Source: Escherichia coli (GTDB lineage: Bacteria; Pseudomonadota; Gammaproteobacteria; Enterobacterales; Enterobacteriaceae). From it: a stretch of 64,000 nt of DNA. Location: NCBI RefSeq assembly GCF_046105845.1, contig NZ_CP151004.1; one strand, given 5' to 3'. This document shows, in pieces, positions 3,307 through 32,930 of the stretch. The number at the start of each line of letters is the position of its first letter. Position 1 is the first letter of the stretch. The position numbers and the translations under genes are program-made. Under the pieces are notes generated by a model. That model searched no databases. It was not told the origin of the DNA and saw only the letters and a list, made by a program, of their open reading frames with translations.

Positions 3307-5751
3307 TTACACCTTTTCAACCTGAACCAGGTTTGTATGTGACGGATTCCCCTTAGCGAGAGGAGACGGACGTTGAGTGGTCAGTACGTTAATACAACCG
3401 CCCTTATCGACACGTTTTGCATCCGGGTCATACCAGGCACCTTCACCCAGTGCGACCACACCCGGCATCATTCGTGGCGTCACTTTCGCCTCAATATGAA
3501 CTTCACCACGGTCGTTAAAGATCCTGACCTTATCGCCGTTGTTGATACCGCGTTTTTGTGCATCAAGCGGGTTGATCCACATTTCCTGACGGCAAGCTGC
3601 TTTCAGCACATCAACGTTGCCGTAAGTTGAGTGAACGCGAGATTTGTAGTGGAAGCCAGTAAGCTGCAGCGGATATTGTTTGTTCAGCGGATCCTGATAA
3701 CTTTCAAAGCCCGGCGTATAGATCGGCAGTGGATCGATCACATCGCCTTCTGGCAATTCCCAGGTCGCGGCAATGTCAGCCAGCGCCTGCGAATAAATCT
3801 CAATTTTACCCGATGGCGTGGTCAGTGGATTTGCCTGAGGATCTTCACGGAAAGCTTTATAAGCAACGTGGTGCCCTTGTGGGTCGCGCTTTTTAAAGAT
3901 CCCCTGCTTGCGGAACTCTTCAAACGTTGGCAGTTCAGGAATCGCTTCCCGCGACTGGGCATACAGATGCCGCATCCACTCTTCCTGTGTACGGCCTTCA
4001 GTAAACTGTTGCTCAACGCCAAGACGTTTTGCCAGTTCGCTGGTCATTTCATAGATGGTCTTACATTCAAAGCGCGGTTTAATCACCTGATCGTTGAAAA
4101 TCACGTAAGACATATTCCCGCAGGATGCATCCAGTGCAAAGTCCATCTGTTCGGAAGCGGTGCAGTCAGGCAGCAGGATGTCAGCATATTTCGCCGATGA
4201 GGTCATGTGGCAGTCGATAACCACAATCAGCTCGCACTTCTTATCATCCTGAAGGATTTCATGGGTACGGTTGATTTCAGAATGCTGGTTAATCAGGCAG
4301 TTACCAGCATAGTTCCAGATCATTTTGATCGGCACATCCAGCTTATCTTTCCCGCGCACACCATCACGCAGCGCCGTCATTTCCGGGCCACGTTCAATGG
4401 CATCGGTCCACATAAACATCGAAATGCTGGTCTGGATCGGGTTTTCGAGGGTCGGCATACGGACAAACGGTAAGCTGTATGAACCTTCACGCGCGCCGCT
4501 GTTCCCCCCGTTAATACCAACGTTACCGGTCAGAATCGCCAGCATCGAGATAGCACGGGTTGCGATTTCACCGTTAGCGTGACGCTGCGGGCCCCATCCC
4601 TGGCTGATAAACGCCGGTTTGGTACTACCGATTTCACGAGCCAATTTGATGATTTTGTCTGCCGGAACACCGGTGATTTGCGAGGCCCATTCCGGCGTTT
4701 TAGCCACGCCATCTGGCCCTTCACCCAGAATATAAGCTTTATAGTGACCATTTTTCGGCGCACTGGCTGGCAGTGTTTTCTCGTCGTAGCCAACGCAATA
4801 TTTATCGAGGAATGCCTGATCCACCAGGTTTTCGGTGATCATGACATACGCCAGACCGTTAACCAGTGCGGCATCTGTTCCCGGACGAATAGGGATCCAC
4901 TCATCTTCGCGCCCGGCACCGGTGTCGGTATAGCGCGGATCGATGATGATCATGCGAGCATTAGATTTCTGGCGCGCCTGTTCAAGATAGTAAGTCACCC
5001 CACCGCCACTCATTCGCGTTTCGCCAGGGTTATTACCAAACAGCACTACCAGTTTACTGTTTTCGATATCCGACGGGCTGTTACCATCTGCCCAGCCGCC
5101 GTAGGTATAGTTCAAACCTTCCGCAATTTGCGCGGAAGAGTAGTCACCGTAATGGTTCAGATAACCGCCGCAGCAGTTCATCAGGCGAGCGACCAGGGTA
5201 TTTCCCGGCGGCCAGGAGCGGGTCATGGTGCCGCCCAGCGTACCGGTACCATAGTTCAGATAGATAGACTCGTTGCCGTACTCTTTGATCAGGCGCTGCA
5301 TATTGGTCGCGATGATGTCGTAGGCTTCTTCCCAGCTAATGCGCTCGAATTTGCCTTCACCGCGCGCCCCGACTCGTTTCATCGGATATTTCAGGCGGTC
5401 CGGATTGTAGACACGGCGACGCATGGAACGCCCACGCAGACAGGCGCGCACCTGGTGCAGGCCGTCATAGTTGTCATCGCCGGTATTATCCGTTTCAACA
5501 TATTTAATTTCACCGTCCACAACGTGCATACGTAGCGGGCAGCGGCTACCACAGTTAACTGTACAGGCGCTCCAGATTACCTTTTCGTCTGACTTTGCCG
5601 GAAGGGCACTATCAACAGCGTGCGCAATTCGACTAAAAGGTAATGTTAATGCGCTGCTGGCCATTGCCAGGCCGCCGATCGCTGTCGTTTTTACCAAACC
5701 ACGGCGACTCACCTCAGCAGCCAATACCGCATCAGGGATTTTCGTTTTCAT
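3307..5751 (-). CDS. dmsA: DMSO reductase catalytic subunit DmsA (molybdopterin; Tat signal)
   Basis: 814 aa; N-terminus carries twin-arginine motif SRRGLVK; N-terminal Cys cluster; operon context dmsABC. Confidence 0.95.
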   Translation of the reverse strand: MKTKIPDAVLAAEVSRRGLVKTTAIGGLAMASSALTLPFSRIAHAVDSALPAKSDEKVIWSACTVNCGSRCPLRMHVVDGEIKYVETDNTGDDNYDGLHQVRACLRGRSMRRRVYNPDRLKYPMKRVGARGEGKFERISWEEAYDIIATNMQRLIKEYGNESIYLNYGTGTLGGTMTRSWPPGNTLVARLMNCCGGYLNHYGDYSSAQIAEGLNYTYGGWADGNSPSDIENSKLVVLFGNNPGETRMSGGGVTYYLEQARQKSNARMIIIDPRYTDTGAGREDEWIPIRPGTDAALVNGLAYVMITENLVDQAFLDKYCVGYDEKTLPASAPKNGHYKAYILGEGPDGVAKTPEWASQITGVPADKIIKLAREIGSTKPAFISQGWGPQRHANGEIATRAISMLAILTGNVGINGGNSGAREGSYSLPFVRMPTLENPIQTSISMFMWTDAIERGPEMTALRDGVRGKDKLDVPIKMIWNYAGNCLINQHSEINRTHEILQDDKKCELIVVIDCHMTSSAKYADILLPDCTASEQMDFALDASCGNMSYVIFNDQVIKPRFECKTIYEMTSELAKRLGVEQQFTEGRTQEEWMRHLYAQSREAIPELPTFEEFRKQGIFKKRDPQGHHVAYKAFREDPQANPLTTPSGKIEIYSQALADIAATWELPEGDVIDPLPIYTPGFESYQDPLNKQYPLQLTGFHYKSRVHSTYGNVDVLKAACRQEMWINPLDAQKRGINNGDKVRIFNDRGEVHIEAKVTPRMMPGVVALGEGAWYDPDAKRVDKGGCINVLTTQRPSPLAKGNPSHTNLVQVEKV

Positions 5752-5943
5752 AATGGCTCACTCAAGCTTGCTCACGATTGATTCCAGTAACAAACCGTAT
5801 TGTGTAATTATTTCTATAGCAGGTCGCTATATAGGCTTGTATACATCGAATAATTTGAAAATCAAAGAGATAGGTAGATTTTCACTCGAAAGTAGTATTA
5901 CGTGTAAGTGAGGAGTAATTATTGTTCGGTATCAAAGGGAGAC

Positions 5944-5969
5944 AAAAAAAGCGCCCGCAGGCGCTTTTT
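5944..5969 (-). terminator. Rho-independent terminator downstream of serS
   Basis: Perfect palindrome aaaaagcgcc-cgca-ggcgcttttt flanked by A and T runs, just past the serS stop. Confidence 0.7.
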
Positions 5970-8726: not shown

Positions 8727-9338
8727 CTACTTACGTTGATCATCTACCGTGACGCCTTGCGGCGGGGTGAAGGTAAATTTCGCTGCATCCACAGCCCCAT
8801 TTTGCTGGGATTTCAGCTGATAACTGCTGCGCTGATCGTCCTGCTCCACCGCGCTAAACTGATGGATCGTGCCATCACGTCCCACGTTAATGGTGAACTG
8901 CTTCAGATTGCCATTGCTGGCTTTCGGCGTCAGGACAAAGTCATCGCCATTCTGTTTGATATTGTACTGCTGCCAGTCGCTGGACTGGTTGCGGGCAATC
9001 AGCATAAACGGCGTATTACCGGTGGCATCTTTCAGCCAGGTTGCCGTAGCTTGCTCAACGAACGGGTTATAGAACCACAGTGTTTTACCGTCAGAAACCA
9101 GAATGCTTTCATCAGGTTGAGTCATATGCCAGTTGAATAAGTTTGGACGCTTCACCCACAGATCGCCCTGGCCTTCCTGCACCGCCGCGCCGCTACCGTC
9201 AGTCACTTTTTGTGTGAAGCTGGCGTGGAAGCTGCTGACTTTATCCAGGCGGCTTTTAAGATCGCTTGCGGCATCAGCCCAAACGCTGCTTGCTACTAAG
9301 CTTGAGAGTAATGCACAGGTGATGGCAATTTTTTTCAT
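8727..9338 (-). CDS. lolA: Periplasmic lipoprotein chaperone LolA
   Basis: ORF 8727..9341; start at second Met gives [21 protein letters not shown] signal peptide, 203 aa. Confidence 0.95.
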
Positions 9339-9450
9339 CATTATTCCTCAAATTACGTCACTCCCGATCGGGAGTTCCCTCTACTCTCTATTCCAGGCTA
9401 ATAATCAGCTTGAGGAAAGAAGAAAATACTGAATTTTCAGTTACCAGATT

Positions 9451-9486
9451 GCCGGATGCGACGCTACCGCGCCTTATCCGGCCTAC
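9451..9486. repeat. REP (repetitive extragenic palindromic) element
   Basis: gccggatgcgacgctaccgcgccttatccggcctac matches the classical E. coli REP consensus; lies in the lolA-ftsK intergenic gap. Confidence 0.65.
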
Positions 9487-9496
9487 GATGCATTAA

Positions 9497-12400
9497 TTAG
9501 TCAAACGGCGGTGGGGCCAGCACTTCACGATTACCGTTGTGCCCCTGCTCGCTGACAATCCCCTGCGCTTCCATCTGTTCGATAATACGCGCTGCACGGT
9601 TATAACCAATGCGGAACTGACGCTGTACGCCAGAAATTGATGCTTTGCGTTTTTCAGTGACAAACTGCACCGCCTGATCGAACAACGGATCCAGCTCTTC
9701 AGCGCCATCGAAACCGCCCGCGCCACCTTCGCTTTCGCTGTCGGAGGTGATGCCATCAACATACTGTGGGCGACCACGCGCTTTCCAGTCCTGCACCACG
9801 GCATGAACTTCCTGATCGCGAACAAAAGCACCATGAACACGTACCGGCAACGTGGAGTTCGGCCCAGAGTAAAGCATATCCCCCATACCCAGTAGTGATT
9901 CCGCGCCAGCCTGATCAAGAATGGTACGTGAGTCAATCTTACTGGATACGGTAAAGGCGATACGGGTCGGAATATTCGCTTTAATCAGACCAGTAATAAC
10001 ATCAACCGATGGACGCTGAGTTGCCAGTACGAGGTGGATACCCGCGGCACGGGCTTTTTGCGCCAGACGTGCTATCAGCTCTTCCACTTTTTTACCTACG
10101 GTCATCATCAGGTCGGCAAATTCGTCCACCAACACCACAATGTATGGTTCTTTTTTCAGCACCGGATGCTGGGCGTCCATACTGTCACCCGGCTTCCAGT
10201 ACGGGTCTGGAATCGGACGCATCATGCGATCGGCTTCAGCAATTTTTTCGTTATAACCCGCCAGATTACGCACACCTAGGGCGGACATAAGCTTATAACG
10301 ACGTTCCATTTCATTTACGCACCAGCGCAAAGCGTTGGCAGCATCTTTCATGTCGGTAACGACTTCCGTTAACAGATGCGGAATGCCTTCATAAACCGAA
10401 AGCTCCAGCATTTTCGGGTCGATCATGATGAAACGCACATCTTCTGGCTGTGCTTTATAAAGCATGCTCAGGATCATCGCGTTCACACCGACAGACTTAC
10501 CGGAACCGGTAGTCCCCGCAACCAACAAGTGCGGCATTTTCGCCAGATCGGCAACCACCGGCTCACCGGCGATATCTTTACCCAGCACCACGGTTAATGG
10601 CGACGGATTATCGCGGAATTTGGCGTTATCCAAAACTTCGCGCAGATATACGGTTTGTCGTTTTTTATTCGGTAACTCCAGACCTACATAGGGTTTGCCA
10701 GGAATAACTTCAACGACACGCACCGCCACCGTCGAAAGTGAACGGGCAAGGTCCCGTGACAAGTTAGAAATACGCGCCGCTTTTACGCCCGGTGCCAGGT
10801 TAAGTTCAAAGCGAGTGATAACCGGCCCCGGAGAGTAATTGACAACATCGGCTTTAATACGGAAATCAGCCAGACGCGCTTCCACCAGACGCGCCATTTG
10901 TTCAAGCGCAAAGGTATCTACCGGCTCCACTTCGCTCGGCGGAGGTGTCAACAAATCCAAAGAAGGCAGCGGCGTCGTCGGTTTATGCAACGGACGGCTG
11001 TCGCCATTACGCATCAACAGCGGATGAAGCAGGGTATCCTGCGGCTGTGGCGCAACTGGCTGTTGTGGCTGCTGATACTGCGGCTGCGGTGCAACCGGTT
11101 GTTGTGGCTGCTGATACTGCTGCTGCGGTGCAACCGGTTGTTGCGGCTGCTGATATTGTGGCTGCGGCGCAACCTGCTGTTGTGGCTGCTGATACTGCTG
11201 CTGCGGTGCAACCGGTTGTTGCGGCTGCTGTACAGGTTCAACAATTGGCGTAAACAACGGTTCGTGTGGACCATCATCCAGCAACGCTTTCATTGGCGAA
11301 AATTCAAAATCATCCAGCGAGAACGGATTCGCCCCAGCCGGTTGTTCGCCGGAATAACGTTGTTGTTGAGTTTGCGCAAACTGACGAGCCAGTTCAGCCT
11401 CTGCCGCAGCATCTGCATCTTCTGCGTTTACGGGCACATCATGTTGATACTGTTCGCCATAGCGTTGCTGCTGTGTCTGGGCGAACTGACGTGCCAGTTC
11501 ATCCTGCTGCATCGCATCGATTTCATCATCGTTGTACTGATCGCCAGAATCGTACTGATTGCGCTGGGCTTCACGGGCTTTTTCTTCCGCCGCACGCTGT
11601 GAGGGCAGCTTAATACCGTAAGACGCCAATTCACGACGAGTTGGCACGCGGATACGTTTCGGTCGTGGCAACTGCGGGCCAATCCCCTCTTTGACCTGCG
11701 GACGCGGTCCAGCGCTATTTGCCAGACTGAAGACTGGCGCGGCAACGGTTGCGGCAGCCCCCGTCGCCAGTGTCGCTTTTTTCACGCCAGATGCCAGAGG
11801 GGAAACAGCGGCAGCGGCTTCCACTGGAGGTACTGCTGCAACAGAAGGTGCTTTTAGCGAAGATTTGATCGGTTCTGGTTCTTTAACCGGTTCTGGAATC
11901 GGTTGATACCAGGCCGCAAGTTGTTCACGTTCACGGGCTCGCTTCTCTTCCACTTCTTCAAAGTAGTAAAGCGGCGGACGCGCGGGTTTTGTCTCTTCTA
12001 CAACGGGTTCAGGCTCCACAACAGGCTGCTGTTCAACAGGTTGCGGCTGTTGGTACAACGGCTCCTGAGCGACTGGCTGCTGATAAGTTTGCTCAGTCTG
12101 GTATGTAGACTGTGGAGCAAAAGTGGATTGCTGCTCTTCGGCTTGCCAGGCGTTACCTGCCACCGATTGTTCTGGCGCAGGGGCGTAATACGGCTGTTGC
12201 GCAGACTGTTCCGGCGCAGGGGCGTAATACGACTGTTGCGCAGACTGTTCCGGCGCAGTTGCGTAATACGGTTGCTGAACAGGTTGTTCCGCCGCAGGCG
12301 CATAATACGGCTGCTGTGGCTGTACAGGTTGTTGCAGCGGCTCATTATATTGCACTGCAGGCTGCGCATATTGTGGCTGCTGTGGGTAACCTTCCGGTGC

Positions 12401-30878: not shown

Positions 30879-31574
30879 ATGTTCAGAAAATTAGCAGCTG
30901 AATGTTTTGGTACTTTCTGGCTTGTTTTTGGTGGCTGTGGTAGTGCTGTACTGGCCGCAGGCTTCCCGGAATTAGGCATTGGTTTTGCCGGCGTGGCGCT
31001 GGCATTCGGTCTGACCGTTCTGACGATGGCCTTTGCTGTTGGTCATATTTCTGGTGGTCATTTTAACCCGGCGGTCACTATTGGTTTATGGGCTGGCGGA
31101 CGTTTCCCGGCAAAAGAAGTCGTTGGCTACGTAATTGCCCAGGTTGTCGGCGGTATTGTTGCGGCGGCGCTGCTGTATTTAATTGCCAGTGGTAAAACGG
31201 GTTTTGACGCGGCAGCCAGCGGTTTTGCTTCTAACGGTTATGGCGAGCATTCGCCAGGCGGTTATTCCATGCTTTCCGCACTGGTAGTTGAACTGGTATT
31301 GAGTGCAGGTTTCCTGCTGGTGATCCACGGCGCAACCGACAAATACGCTCCGGCAGGTTTTGCACCGATCGCTATTGGTCTGGCCTTAACCCTGATTCAC
31401 TTAATCAGTATTCCGGTGACTAACACTTCTGTTAACCCGGCGCGCAGCACCGCGGTTGCTATCTTCCAGGGCGGCTGGGCATTAGAACAACTGTGGTTCT
31501 TCTGGGTGGTGCCAATTGTCGGCGGTATTATCGGTGGTCTGATTTACCGGACCCTGCTGGAAAAGCGTAATTAA
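30879..31574 (+). CDS. aqpZ: Aquaporin Z
   Basis: ORF 30873..31574; start at ATG gives [22 protein letters not shown], 231 aa; two NPA motifs. Confidence 0.95.
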
Positions 31575-31639
31575 TTAGCATTGGCATTTTATTTGCCCTG
31601 GTTGTTTTATCTTCGACGTTACAAACCGCACGGGTGTTG

Positions 31640-31860
31640 GTGGCGTCAAAATCGCTGAAGCGTTCCCCGAAGGCCGGGGCAGCCCACATGGATGTGGGCT
31701 GAGGGCGCGTCTTACAGGACGTTACCTCGCGCCCGACCCGGTAGCCGAAGGGGATAAGCGGAAGGCACCGCGCAGCGGCGATTTTGTTCGCCAGAGCCCG
31801 GGGGTGCAGGGGGCGGCGGCGACTGGCCGCCCCCTGCGCGCTCCTTGCACCAGTGGCTTT
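31640..31860. other. GC-rich, hairpin-dense intergenic element (unclassified)
   Basis: About 220 bp of high GC with several inverted repeats, including a perfect 11-bp stem at 31806..31837 and palindrome gcccacat-gg-atgtgggc at 31682..31699. Confidence 0.3.
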
Positions 31861-32030
31861 ATATGGCATTGCACATGAAAGGAGCGCAACAATGCTAAAC
31901 ACTCATAGAGAATTAAAAATCCCCCTCTGATGCATAACATTTCCTTTTAATTGCAACTTTACTCGTCCTTCCGCTTTCAGTAGTGTGTCATCGCGCATTT
32001 CGACTTCATCTTTGCAAGGACTGGGTTTTC

Positions 32031-32930
32031 ATGTTTTCTGGGCTGTTAATCATTCTGGTTCCCCTGATTGTGGGTTACCTCATTCCGCTTCGCCAAAAAG
32101 CTGCATTAAGAGTTATTAATCAGCTCTTAAGCTGGATGGTTTACCTTATTCTCTTTTTTATGGGTATCAGTCTGGCGTTTCTCGATAACCTCGCCAGTAA
32201 CCTGTTGGCAATTCTGCATTATTCCGCCGTCAGCATTACCATTATTTTACTCTGCAATATTATTGCGTTGTTGTGGCTGGAGCGCGGTCTGCCGTGGCGC
32301 AATCACCACCAGCAAGAAAAACTCCCGTCGCGTATTGCGATGGCGCTGGAGTCGCTAAAACTGTGCGGCGTAGTAGTGATTGGTTTTGCCATTGGCCTGA
32401 GTGGACTGGCTTTCTTACAACATGCGACCGAAGCCAGTGAATACACCTTAATTCTGCTACTTTTCCTCGTCGGTATTCAGTTGCGCAATAATGGCATGAC
32501 CTTAAAGCAGATTGTCCTTAATCGCCGGGGAATGATTGTCGCCGTGGTGGTGGTTGTCAGTTCATTAATTGGTGGTTTAATTAACGCCTTTATTCTTGAT
32601 CTCCCCATCAATACCGCGCTGGCAATGGCCTCTGGTTTCGGCTGGTATTCTCTTTCCGGTATTTTATTGACCGAATCTTTTGGTCCGGTAATCGGGAGCG
32701 CGGCGTTTTTTAATGATCTGGCCCGTGAGCTGATTGCAATTATGTTGATCCCTGGGCTGATTCGCCGCAGCCGCTCTACCGCACTGGGCTTATGCGGTGC
32801 CACGTCGATGGATTTCACCCTGCCCGTTCTTCAACGTACTGGCGGGCTGGATATGGTCCCGGCGGCGATTGTTCACGGTTTTATTCTTAGTCTGTTAGTG
32901 CCGATCCTCATCGCCTTTTTCTCTGCATAA
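32031..32930 (+). CDS. lysO: Lysine exporter LysO
   Basis: ORF 31983..32930; start at internal ATG gives MFSGLLIILVPLIVGYLIP, 299 aa; polytopic membrane protein. Confidence 0.85.
   Translation: MFSGLLIILVPLIVGYLIPLRQKAALRVINQLLSWMVYLILFFMGISLAFLDNLASNLLAILHYSAVSITIILLCNIIALLWLERGLPWRNHHQQEKLPSRIAMALESLKLCGVVVIGFAIGLSGLAFLQHATEASEYTLILLLFLVGIQLRNNGMTLKQIVLNRRGMIVAVVVVVSSLIGGLINAFILDLPINTALAMASGFGWYSLSGILLTESFGPVIGSAAFFNDLARELIAIMLIPGLIRRSRSTALGLCGATSMDFTLPVLQRTGGLDMVPAAIVHGFILSLLVPILIAFFSA

Follow-up and report, generated by a model that had tools for sequence, protein, structure and literature searches.

The GC-rich element between aqpZ and lysO of Escherichia coli is TRIP1a (RRS-lysO), a member of a structured repeat family of the Enterobacteriaceae

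A GC-rich element dense in hairpins

What is the short GC-rich sequence that separates aqpZ from lysO in Escherichia coli, and what does it do? We addressed this question in a stretch of 64,000 nucleotides of contig NZ_CP151004.1 (assembly GCF_046105845.1), hereafter called the window. An initial annotation, made from the letters alone, had drawn attention to positions 31640-31860 as a non-coding region of high GC content with several inverted repeats, and had proposed a structured 5' leader for lysO, a small RNA, or an unclassified repeat. The region has a GC content of 68.8%, against 51.0% for the whole window, and it lies, as described, downstream of aqpZ (30879-31574) and upstream of lysO (32031-32930). 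Repeat finding recovered all three of the inverted repeats that had been named. The palindrome gcccacat-gg-atgtgggc has perfect 10-nt arms (31680-31689 and 31692-31701) and the gggcgcg/cgcgccc pair perfect 7-nt arms (31703-31709 and 31728-31734), while the stem at 31806-31837 is indeed perfect but has arms of 12 nt instead of 11. It also revealed a long-range pairing (31647-31662 with 31771-31786) and a 3' stem (31838-31849 with 31876-31887). Two open reading frames that had been regarded as spurious (31528-31902 and 31722-31940) exist on the minus strand; neither they nor a 48-aa frame on the plus strand over the element had any Pfam match, and we treated the region as non-coding. The impression that it does not resemble REP was borne out by naRNA4, a REP-derived proxy, which has no match in 31400-32200 at E <= 10 and does match genuine REP clusters at other loci.

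The element folds very stably. As single-stranded RNA, the plus strand of 31623-31894 reaches -154 kcal/mol (z = -6.77), and none of 200 dinucleotide shuffles was as stable; the minus strand reaches -135.8 kcal/mol (z = -5.14). The features of the locus are given below, where A1 is an alignment of 64 family sequences on which the profile HMM, the covariation analysis, and the counts of invariant positions are based.

30879..31574, plus strand: aqpZ (context).
31575..31622, no strand: allele-specific left flank, without the aqpZ terminator hairpin of K-12.
31623..31894, plus strand: TRIP1a/RRS-lysO module; its G-rich "sense" strand is the plus strand of the window.
31635..31855, plus strand: equivalent of the published 222-bp RRS, mapped through A1.
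31647..31786, plus strand: domain I, a long-range helix (P1) around a three-way junction.
31647-31655 with 31778-31786, plus strand: helix P1, CAAAATCGC with GCGATTTTG; pairs kept in 94.8% of cells.
31680..31701, plus strand: hairpin H1, loop AUGGAU, the first AYGGAY/GGA loop.
31703..31734, plus strand: hairpin H2, loop ACAGGACG, from repeat finding and direct reading.
31800..31819, plus strand: predicted G-quadruplex (G4) motif GGGGGTGCAGGGGGCGGCGG, exact match.
31806..31837, plus strand: perfect 12-bp GC hairpin overlapping the G4 motif, from repeat finding.
31838..31887, plus strand: 3' hairpin with closing stem GCGCUCC/GGAGCGC, from repeat finding.
31895..31926, no strand: allele-specific right flank; the sequence shared with K-12 restarts at ATGCATAAC.
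32031..32930, plus strand: lysO, also ybjE (context).

Identity of the element

The element is TRIP1a, also published as RRS-lysO, and as such is already known and characterised (Rudd 1999; Pham et al. NAR 2023, 2024; Li et al. Genes 2024; Kusi-Appauh et al. bioRxiv 2026). TRIP1 repeats were first listed by Rudd in 1999, and the copies of K-12 are TRIP1a between aqpZ and ybjE, TRIP1b at putP, and TRIP1c at dusC/yohI (PMC10888264). The RRS were described as a pair of GC-rich 222-bp repeats, one near lysO and an inverted one near dusC, at a distance of 650 kb from dif in each case, and TRIP1 and RRS have been stated to be one element (PMC11194060). Both dif and dusC are outside the window. The copy in the window is homologous over most of its length to TRIP1a of K-12 (NC_000913.3, 915016-915281; 91.6% identity over 275 bp), occupies the same intergenic region between aqpZ and lysO (ybjE), and carries the G4-forming motif on one strand only, with a G4Hunter-like maximum of 1.80 on the sense strand. 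Built from the 64 family members, a profile HMM hits 31627-31892 (E = 9.7e-73). The orientation differs from the canonical one of K-12, the element being inverted in the window, which is a matter of configuration and not of membership. The span delimited initially is nearly the same as that of the published RRS, whose K-12 definition is 168-389 bp upstream of lysO (PMC11194060), and the conserved module is slightly longer (approximately 31623-31894).

A BLAST search with 31620-31880 found the element in 5425 of 5426 complete E. coli genomes, at a median of 3 and a maximum of 10 places per genome. It is hence a dispersed repeat, although the window itself holds no further copy. The proposal of an unclassified repeat was therefore right about the repeat and wrong about the classification, and an already known family of repeats with many copies in the genome is an outcome that the initial annotation had set against its own proposals. 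The RSA repeat was considered as an identity and dropped after the identification of TRIP1; we found no literature on RSA, Box C, or IRU as the class of the aqpZ-lysO repeat.

Two alleles at lysO

Compared with the K-12 locus, the window matches the minus strand in its aqpZ and lysO flanks and the plus strand in the element itself, which means that the element is inverted in place. Around 105 bp proximal to lysO remain 98.9% identical between the two alleles, and the immediate 40-65 bp on each side of the element differ. The aqpZ terminator hairpin of K-12 (GGCCTGGCGTAATGTCAGGCC, followed by seven T) is absent from the window allele, where a 9-bp inverted repeat has one arm at 31575-31583 and the other at 31890-31898. 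The element is 8.4% divergent between the alleles, against 1-2.5% for the neighbouring genes. We considered an inversion of the whole segment, flanks included, as the origin of the two alleles, but the flanks are weakly alignable at most and a simple recent inversion is unsupported.

Searches specific to the junctions identified the window-type allele in 1293 and the K-12 type in 3576 of the 5426 complete genomes. These counts agree with those of Li et al. for the two orientations (1255 and 3448), who had already reported the coordinates of TRIP1a and its orientation polymorphism (PMC10888264). In E69, the lysO and dusC copies are both flipped with their native flanks kept. Internal-deletion variants are known for both lysO alleles and were the only variants of this kind in the sampled genomes, none of which had an empty site at lysO or dusC. 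The co-directionality with lysO noted initially is a property of the window's strain and does not extend beyond it.

The GC skew of the plus strand is negative in 12 of the 15 intervals in which it was computed, and a complete genome with 100% identity retains the gene order of K-12 with the element on the opposite strand. Hence, the G-rich strand serves as the leading-strand template in the window's strain, and aqpZ and lysO have their coding sense on this strand too.

A family with a covarying fold

Relatives of the element are found in chromosomal records labelled as plasmids, from Klebsiella (13 places in one record of 5.4 Mb) and Citrobacter. Scanning a single genome of each species with a pattern gave 66 loci from Escherichia, Citrobacter, Klebsiella, Enterobacter, Pseudescherichia, Pluralibacter, Kluyvera, Pseudocitrobacter, and Raoultella, with seven copies in one Enterobacter. 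The copies in Klebsiella directly adjoin REP-like sequences.

Compensatory changes are present in every major helix of A1, and RNAalifold predicts 57 pairs, 26 of which changed on both sides. When the minimum free energy structure of the window copy is laid over the family, 81.9% of the cells are paired, compared with 39-44% when the partners are slid, and the covariation score is 0.203 against 0.07-0.08 in the slid controls. Helix P1 has four pairs with changes on both sides. In H1, three of the nine pairs covary (CG/GC, CG/AU, GC/AU) and 99.7% of the cells are paired; its loop is also retained in the modules detected by the HMM, independently of the search pattern. The H2 positions C93, A94, G95, G96, A97, and G99, which lie outside the search pattern, are invariant in all 64 members. 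The GC hairpin has changes on both sides in seven of its 12 pairs, and the closing stem of the 3' hairpin covaries as well (GCGCTCC/GGAGCGC, ACGTTCAC/GTGAACG, GCGCTCT/AGAGCGC). The family thus spans the Enterobacteriaceae and has at least six helices with strong compensatory covariation, which goes beyond the cited papers. The covariation analysis recommended at the outset indicates a fold under purifying selection across these bacteria.

The two strands are not equivalent. On the G-rich strand, G-U pairs outnumber A-C pairs (426 vs 215), and the sense strand is the more stable one in 64 of 64 members, with RNA and DNA parameters alike. The excess of G-U pairs and the better folding both indicate that the G-rich strand is under structural selection, which fits the experiments, where this strand gives the stronger polymerase block.

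The G4 itself is less constant. Its exact motif is present in 19 of the 64 members and the G4Hunter-like score is high (>=1.5) in 38. The Citrobacter, Pseudescherichia, and Pluralibacter types score at most 1.2 and keep the hairpin by compensatory changes. In other words, the hairpin at the G4 site is conserved in all subfamilies and no conservation of the G4 is seen beyond one clade. This suggests that the target of selection is the fold with its GGA loops and not the G4 itself. Covarying helices, invariant loops, and a non-conserved G4 are testable additions to the RRS model.

Relative to the neighbouring genes, 26 of the 50 classifiable loci are convergent, 11 co-directional, 12 antisense, and one divergent. 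The elements are therefore almost always at the 3' ends of genes, with no orientation preference related to transcription in the tandem contexts (11 vs 12). Paralogous modules are joined head-to-head into a repeat unit of 560-690 bp in Citrobacter, Enterobacter, Pseudescherichia, Kluyvera, and Pseudocitrobacter. Such a pair offers the G-rich strand to both templates, whatever the direction of the fork, and its outer ends are long inverted repeats. The ends are heterogeneous, one pair being bracketed by a palindrome that may be a duplication or a terminator.

Action on replication

Pol I, II, and IV come to a halt at the predicted G4 GGGGGTGCAGGGGGCGGCGG, which in K-12 is on the lagging-strand template (PMC11194060), and at RRS-lysO the polymerases are blocked at the predicted G-quadruplex or at the GC hairpin, leaving post-replication gaps (Pham, Cox, Goodman). 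These lagging-strand gaps of up to 2 kb are coated with RecA and SSB and are visible as ssGap-seq peaks (PMC11194060, PMC10287960); with engineered inversions of the RRS, ssGap-seq has no gap peak (PMC11194060). In vitro, a G4 on the lagging-strand template leads to gaps of around 650 nt at about 100% of the encounters, and the reverse configuration to gaps of around 325 nt at some 66% of them (PMC13308219). Both RRS copies can be deleted only alongside a compensating amplification of insH7-8 (PMC11194060), and removal or inversion of the RRS alters supercoiling genome-wide (Pham et al.). Their authors propose that the gap is a topological relief valve near the border of the Ter macrodomain. 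By these reports, the two RRS of E. coli are thus conditionally essential and shape supercoiling across the genome, and given this identity and these roles, the initial annotation had picked a real functional element from sequence alone. Hairpins, small RNAs, and mobility are not mentioned in the 2024 RRS paper (PMC11194060).

We consider it likely that the element, as the lysO copy of TRIP1/RRS, acts at the DNA level by folding when the duplex is unwound. As the fork unwinds it, the module of around 270 nt would fold into a highly stable multi-helix structure made of the long closing helix, the three-way junction with its two hairpins, the GC hairpin overlapping the G4, and the 3' hairpin. 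The G-rich strand would fold most strongly, and in K-12 this is the lagging-strand template. There the fold would stop the DNA polymerases; the one on the lagging strand would jump past it and leave up to 2 kb as a gap, onto which SSB and RecA are loaded. In the window's strain, it is the C-rich strand, with its weaker fold, that the lagging-strand template exposes, and because of this we predict a weaker effect, with fewer and shorter gaps than those of K-12.

Several observations sit less well with this mechanism. The orientation that puts the G4 onto the lagging-strand template is not maintained in nature, since 1293 genomes have the opposite arrangement to the 3576 of K-12 type and E69 has both copies flipped. 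The engineered inversions, with their missing ssGap-seq peak, also weigh against it. Across the family, the G-rich strand is on the lagging-template side at 13 of 34 loci (13 vs 21), as judged by local GC skew, a noisy proxy. Other genera have 6-13 dispersed copies, more than a pair flanking Ter. Finally, a mechanism in which any stable structure would do does not explain the invariant loops A(U/G)GGAU and CAGGGA. The window-type "reverse" allele, present in about a quarter of the complete E. coli genomes, provides a natural test of the claim that a lagging-strand position of the G4 matters.

A possible link with TwoAYGGAY

The Rfam scan suggested by the initial annotation was run at E <= 10 and returned nothing at threshold, with a sole lead. 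This was TwoAYGGAY (RF01731), which the two central hairpins of the window copy match with 24.2 bits (E = 0.34; model positions 46-112), below the gathering score of 43 bits. Other members of the family exceed this score: three Pluralibacter loci reach 51.9 (L014), 46.3 (L013), and 47.2 bits (L015), and the second modules of head-to-head pairs in Pseudocitrobacter and Kluyvera (L022, L069, L072) reach 49.2 bits. With the profile HMM of A1, these second modules are detected over almost their whole length (E from 1e-14 to 1e-52), and a joint alignment gives them the same helix P1, H1, AG linker, H2, GC hairpin, and 3' stem. The closing stems and the three-way junction of TwoAYGGAY are present and covary in the module. 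As for its loops, AUGGAU of H1 fits; the H2 loop reads AGGAC in the window copy and AGGGAU in that of K-12, so that the Y position is not kept.

TwoAYGGAY (Weinberg et al. 2010) belongs to the Rfam clan CL00106 together with CsrB. It was described as a probable RNA, with no function assigned, in gut metagenomes, Gammaproteobacteria, and Clostridiales (PMC2864571), and was later proposed to bind CsrA (PMC4333381). In the searched literature that mentions TwoAYGGAY, we found nothing that connects it to RRS or TRIP1. The link is to this extent unreported, and the matches above make it a candidate worth testing.

We put forward, as a tentative possibility, that RRS/TRIP1 and TwoAYGGAY are one dispersed family of around 270 nt, often arranged head-to-head, in which the fold and the GGA loops are selected and the G-quadruplex is not, and that one of two consequences follows. 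In the first, the function in gap formation would require that the fold, whether in ssDNA or in RNA, be recognised sequence-specifically, perhaps by CsrA or some other protein that binds GGA. In the second, the supposed RNA motif TwoAYGGAY would actually be an element that triggers gaps at the DNA level.

Other explanations

The dispersal of the element invites the question of whether it might simply be selfish, i.e., a mobilisable repeat, MITE-like or the cargo of one, that lands harmlessly downstream of genes. Its fold would then aid propagation, for example through the recognition of folded ssDNA, and stalling would be a side effect. The copies are dispersed and variable in number (from the median of 3 in E. 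coli to 13 in the Klebsiella chromosome), and they occupy unrelated intergenic contexts across genera, almost always at gene 3' ends, with 26 convergent loci and one divergent among the 50 classifiable. TRIP1d (alx-sstT) and TRIP1e (copA-ybaP) are present in 23% and 3% of the E. coli genomes, respectively (Li et al. 2024, PMC10888264). The long inverted repeats at the outer ends of the 560-690-bp pairs point in the same direction, and some of the pairs are bracketed by short inverted repeats, one set of which resembles the ends of IS50. The distinct flanks of the two lysO alleles, with an element more divergent than its surroundings, would also fit independent insertions. Yet no terminal inverted repeat or target-site duplication is consistent across loci, the sampled genomes have no empty site at lysO or dusC, and an associated transposase was not seen, the repeat units being at most around 690 bp. 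The phage collection had no match, and the plasmid matches are chromosome-like, non-mobilizable records. Moreover, the fact that the double deletion in K-12 was recovered only with a compensating amplification (PMC11194060) argues for a host function. We therefore regard selfishness as an unlikely explanation of the element.

Another proposal of the initial annotation, a small RNA, fares in a mixed way: the fold covaries and sister modules match TwoAYGGAY, but simple scans of the window, K-12, Citrobacter, and Pseudocitrobacter copies found no sigma-70-like promoter or intrinsic terminator of the module, and its orientation has no bias. Given the missing promoter and terminator signals, we dropped an independent small RNA gene as a leading idea.

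A broader version is that the element functions as RNA, as a member of TwoAYGGAY whose two GGA-loop hairpins bind a dimeric RNA-binding protein, with CsrA as the candidate, and acts either as a decoy or within a 3' UTR. In the window's strain, sense transcription would come from read-through of aqpZ, whose allele has no predicted terminator. The sense element lies 47-49 nt past the stop codon of aqpZ (window) or dusC (K-12). Each module has on average 7.0 GGA triplets, compared with 2.4 of UCC. Neither AUGGAU nor A(G)GGAY varies in the loops, and judging from their sequence these two GGA loops resemble CsrA binding sites. The H1 loop AUGGAU and the H2 loop of K-12, ACAGGGAUGU, resemble the CsrA SELEX consensus RUACARGGAUGU; ACAGGGAUG, found in K-12 in place of the window's H2 loop, equals the core ACARGGAUGU of this consensus. 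The sister modules that align full-length and exceed the threshold of RF01731, the weaker match of the window copy to the same hairpins, and the earlier proposal that TwoAYGGAY binds CsrA (PMC4333381) add to this. Against it, besides the lack of promoter or terminator signals, the element is about as often antisense as co-directional in tandem contexts, and its lysO copy is antisense to both neighbours in two thirds of the E. coli genomes. The window and other E. coli copies stay under the Rfam threshold, the window having AGGAC and not AYGGAY in H2, and we found no CsrA CLIP data near dusC in the literature. A single DNA strand that folds would equally be expected to produce the G-U bias and the covariation. 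Altogether, a function as RNA seems quite improbable to us. Both this explanation and the selfish one may be compatible with the mechanism at the DNA level.

A cis-regulatory 5' leader or riboswitch for lysO is hardly tenable, since the element, although it lies 137 bp upstream of the start codon and is co-directional in the window's strain, is inverted in 3576 of the 5426 genomes with the lysO-proximal 105 bp conserved, an orientation polymorphism that effectively refutes this reading; moreover, homologous copies adjoin unrelated genes, and no lysine riboswitch or leader family matches at E <= 10 in Rfam. We found no mapped transcription start of lysO in the literature.

Comparison with known systems

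We compared the element with several known systems. With the RRS/TRIP1 of K-12 the window copy shares the locus between aqpZ and lysO, an identical G4 motif, the GC richness, and the predicted fold. It differs by its inversion, its immediate flanks, the absence of the aqpZ terminator, and a 1-nt deletion in the loop of H2 (AGGAC vs AGGGAU). REP/BIME and ERIC are likewise intergenic repeats downstream of genes, GC-rich (REP) or palindromic, but the element is far longer, has a low copy number, and is a multi-helix structure instead of a single imperfect palindrome. The G4 at pilE of Neisseria gonorrhoeae, cited by the RRS authors as another bacterial sequence that triggers gaps, is also G-rich, forms a structure, and perturbs replication or repair locally. 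It is a short G4, whereas the RRS is an element of 270 nt with multiple helices in which the G4 is not conserved family-wide.

Like CsrB and CsrC, the element displays GGA in hairpin loops, with two sites around 30 nt apart, a spacing that could be suitable for a CsrA dimer. CsrB and CsrC have 9-22 loop sites, compared with two clear ones here, and the orientation of the element is not tied to transcription. As a sponge of this type it compares poorly, with 8.6 bits against CsrC, on the minus (wrong) strand only, and five GGA in 272 nt.

In structure the element also resembles TwoAYGGAY, which has the same three-way junction, closing stem, H1 loop AUGGAU, short AG-containing linker, and longer second hairpin with a GGA loop, and which is, like TRIP1, multi-copy in genomes. 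TRIP1 has in addition a 3' domain, made of the GC hairpin and the 3' hairpin, that is absent from the Rfam model. If the two are indeed related, the orphan motif TwoAYGGAY would gain its first experimentally studied relative.

Structure of the inverted lysO allele

The TRIP1a module between aqpZ and lysO, which is inverted relative to K-12, carries or adjoins three short features in the window:

31575-31583 and 31890-31898, perfect 9-bp inverted repeat (TTAGCATTG / CAATGCTAA)
31662-31679 and 31786-31803, 18-nt direct repeat inside the element (GTTCCCCGAAGGCCGGGG / GTTCGCCAGAGCCCGGGG)
within 31879-31931, AAGGAG in the 3' stem, an ATG 8 nt on and a 12-codon ORF (MLNTHRELKIPL)

The 9-bp inverted repeat brackets the whole allele-specific segment, including the inverted element, and has no counterpart in the K-12-type allele. 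It could be due to chance, or it could be the trace of an insertion or inversion of the segment. The left flank also differs in its termination signals. In K-12, aqpZ is followed by an intrinsic terminator consisting of GGCCTGGCGTAATGTCAGGCC and seven T, which is absent from the window allele (31575-31622, compared with 4287-4352 of the K-12 counterpart, L001), and no terminator-like site was predicted between aqpZ and lysO in the window. Hence, transcription from aqpZ may read through into the element in the sense direction, and possibly as far as lysO.

The short ORF at the 3' stem probably arises incidentally from the conserved GGAGCGC stem. At the corresponding place, other short ORFs are found in the K-12 modules TRIP1a (MMNQHITTS) and TRIP1c (MRD), and Klebsiella lacks one.

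Internal deletions, insertions and orientation

To the comparison of internal deletions we entered the loci L074 (strain A36), L006 (TRIP1b of K-12), and L075 (AR_0089). The 18-nt direct repeat lies at both ends of a recurrent deletion, in which the two GGA hairpins are lost and the GC hairpin is retained. The K-12-type allele has an internal deletion of another kind. Insertions of about 77 nt within the module were seen at L018, L026, and L046, and in Raoultella terrigena (L054, 193-615) the 5' part of the module is partially duplicated in tandem. In Klebsiella (L002, L003, L038, L039, L055-L060), most copies have REP-like sequences (e.g., GCCGGGTGGCGGCTGCGCCTTACCCGGCCTAC) directly upstream, and after these come ~40 nt that are likewise conserved among copies.

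In E. coli E69 (CP089930.1; L043 and L044), the lysO and dusC copies are both flipped relative to K-12 and keep their native flanking genes. The two copies are therefore still mutually inverted, but the G-rich strand would in each case be on the leading-strand template.

Head-to-head pairs in other genera

Whereas E. coli and Klebsiella have single modules, in several genera the repeat unit is 560-690 bp long and consists of two paralogous modules placed head-to-head. The spacer between the paired modules is about 50-190 bp long and AT-rich in most of the pair-bearing genera.

Loci bearing head-to-head pairs
Enterobacter sp. ENT03: L027-L033
Pseudescherichia: L017-L020
Citrobacter: L005, L016, L037, L062, L065, L066
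Pseudocitrobacter, Kluyvera: L022, L069, L072

In Pseudocitrobacter vendiensis (L069, about 5260-5950), the pair is enclosed by TAATGCTGGTCAGTTAAG inverted repeats, with the palindrome CCCCCGTAAGGGA external to them on both sides; this palindrome could be either a duplicated target site or a terminator that is itself duplicated. In Kluyvera genomosp. 3 (L050, about 9150-9900), the pair is flanked by the inverted sequences CTGTCTGTTATACACAA and CTGTCTCTTATA, which resemble the ends of IS50 / Tn5. No IS50-like brackets were seen at the other loci.

Copies in metagenome-assembled genomes and comparison with TwoAYGGAY

Near-identical Klebsiella-type or E. coli-type copies were also found in metagenome-assembled genomes of unrelated taxa, labelled Desulfacinum (L012), Sporobacter (L045), and 'Proteobacteria' (L021). 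These are most likely mis-binned enterobacterial contigs. Among the original TwoAYGGAY examples, those of Psychromonas ingrahamii (NC_008709) are multi-copy as well, and a further repeated block, GUAACACGCCGUCAGGGCGGAAGACCAACAA, comes after them (supplementary alignment TwoAYGGAY.sto, PMC2864571). This suggests that TwoAYGGAY likewise belongs to dispersed repeats in Psychromonas.
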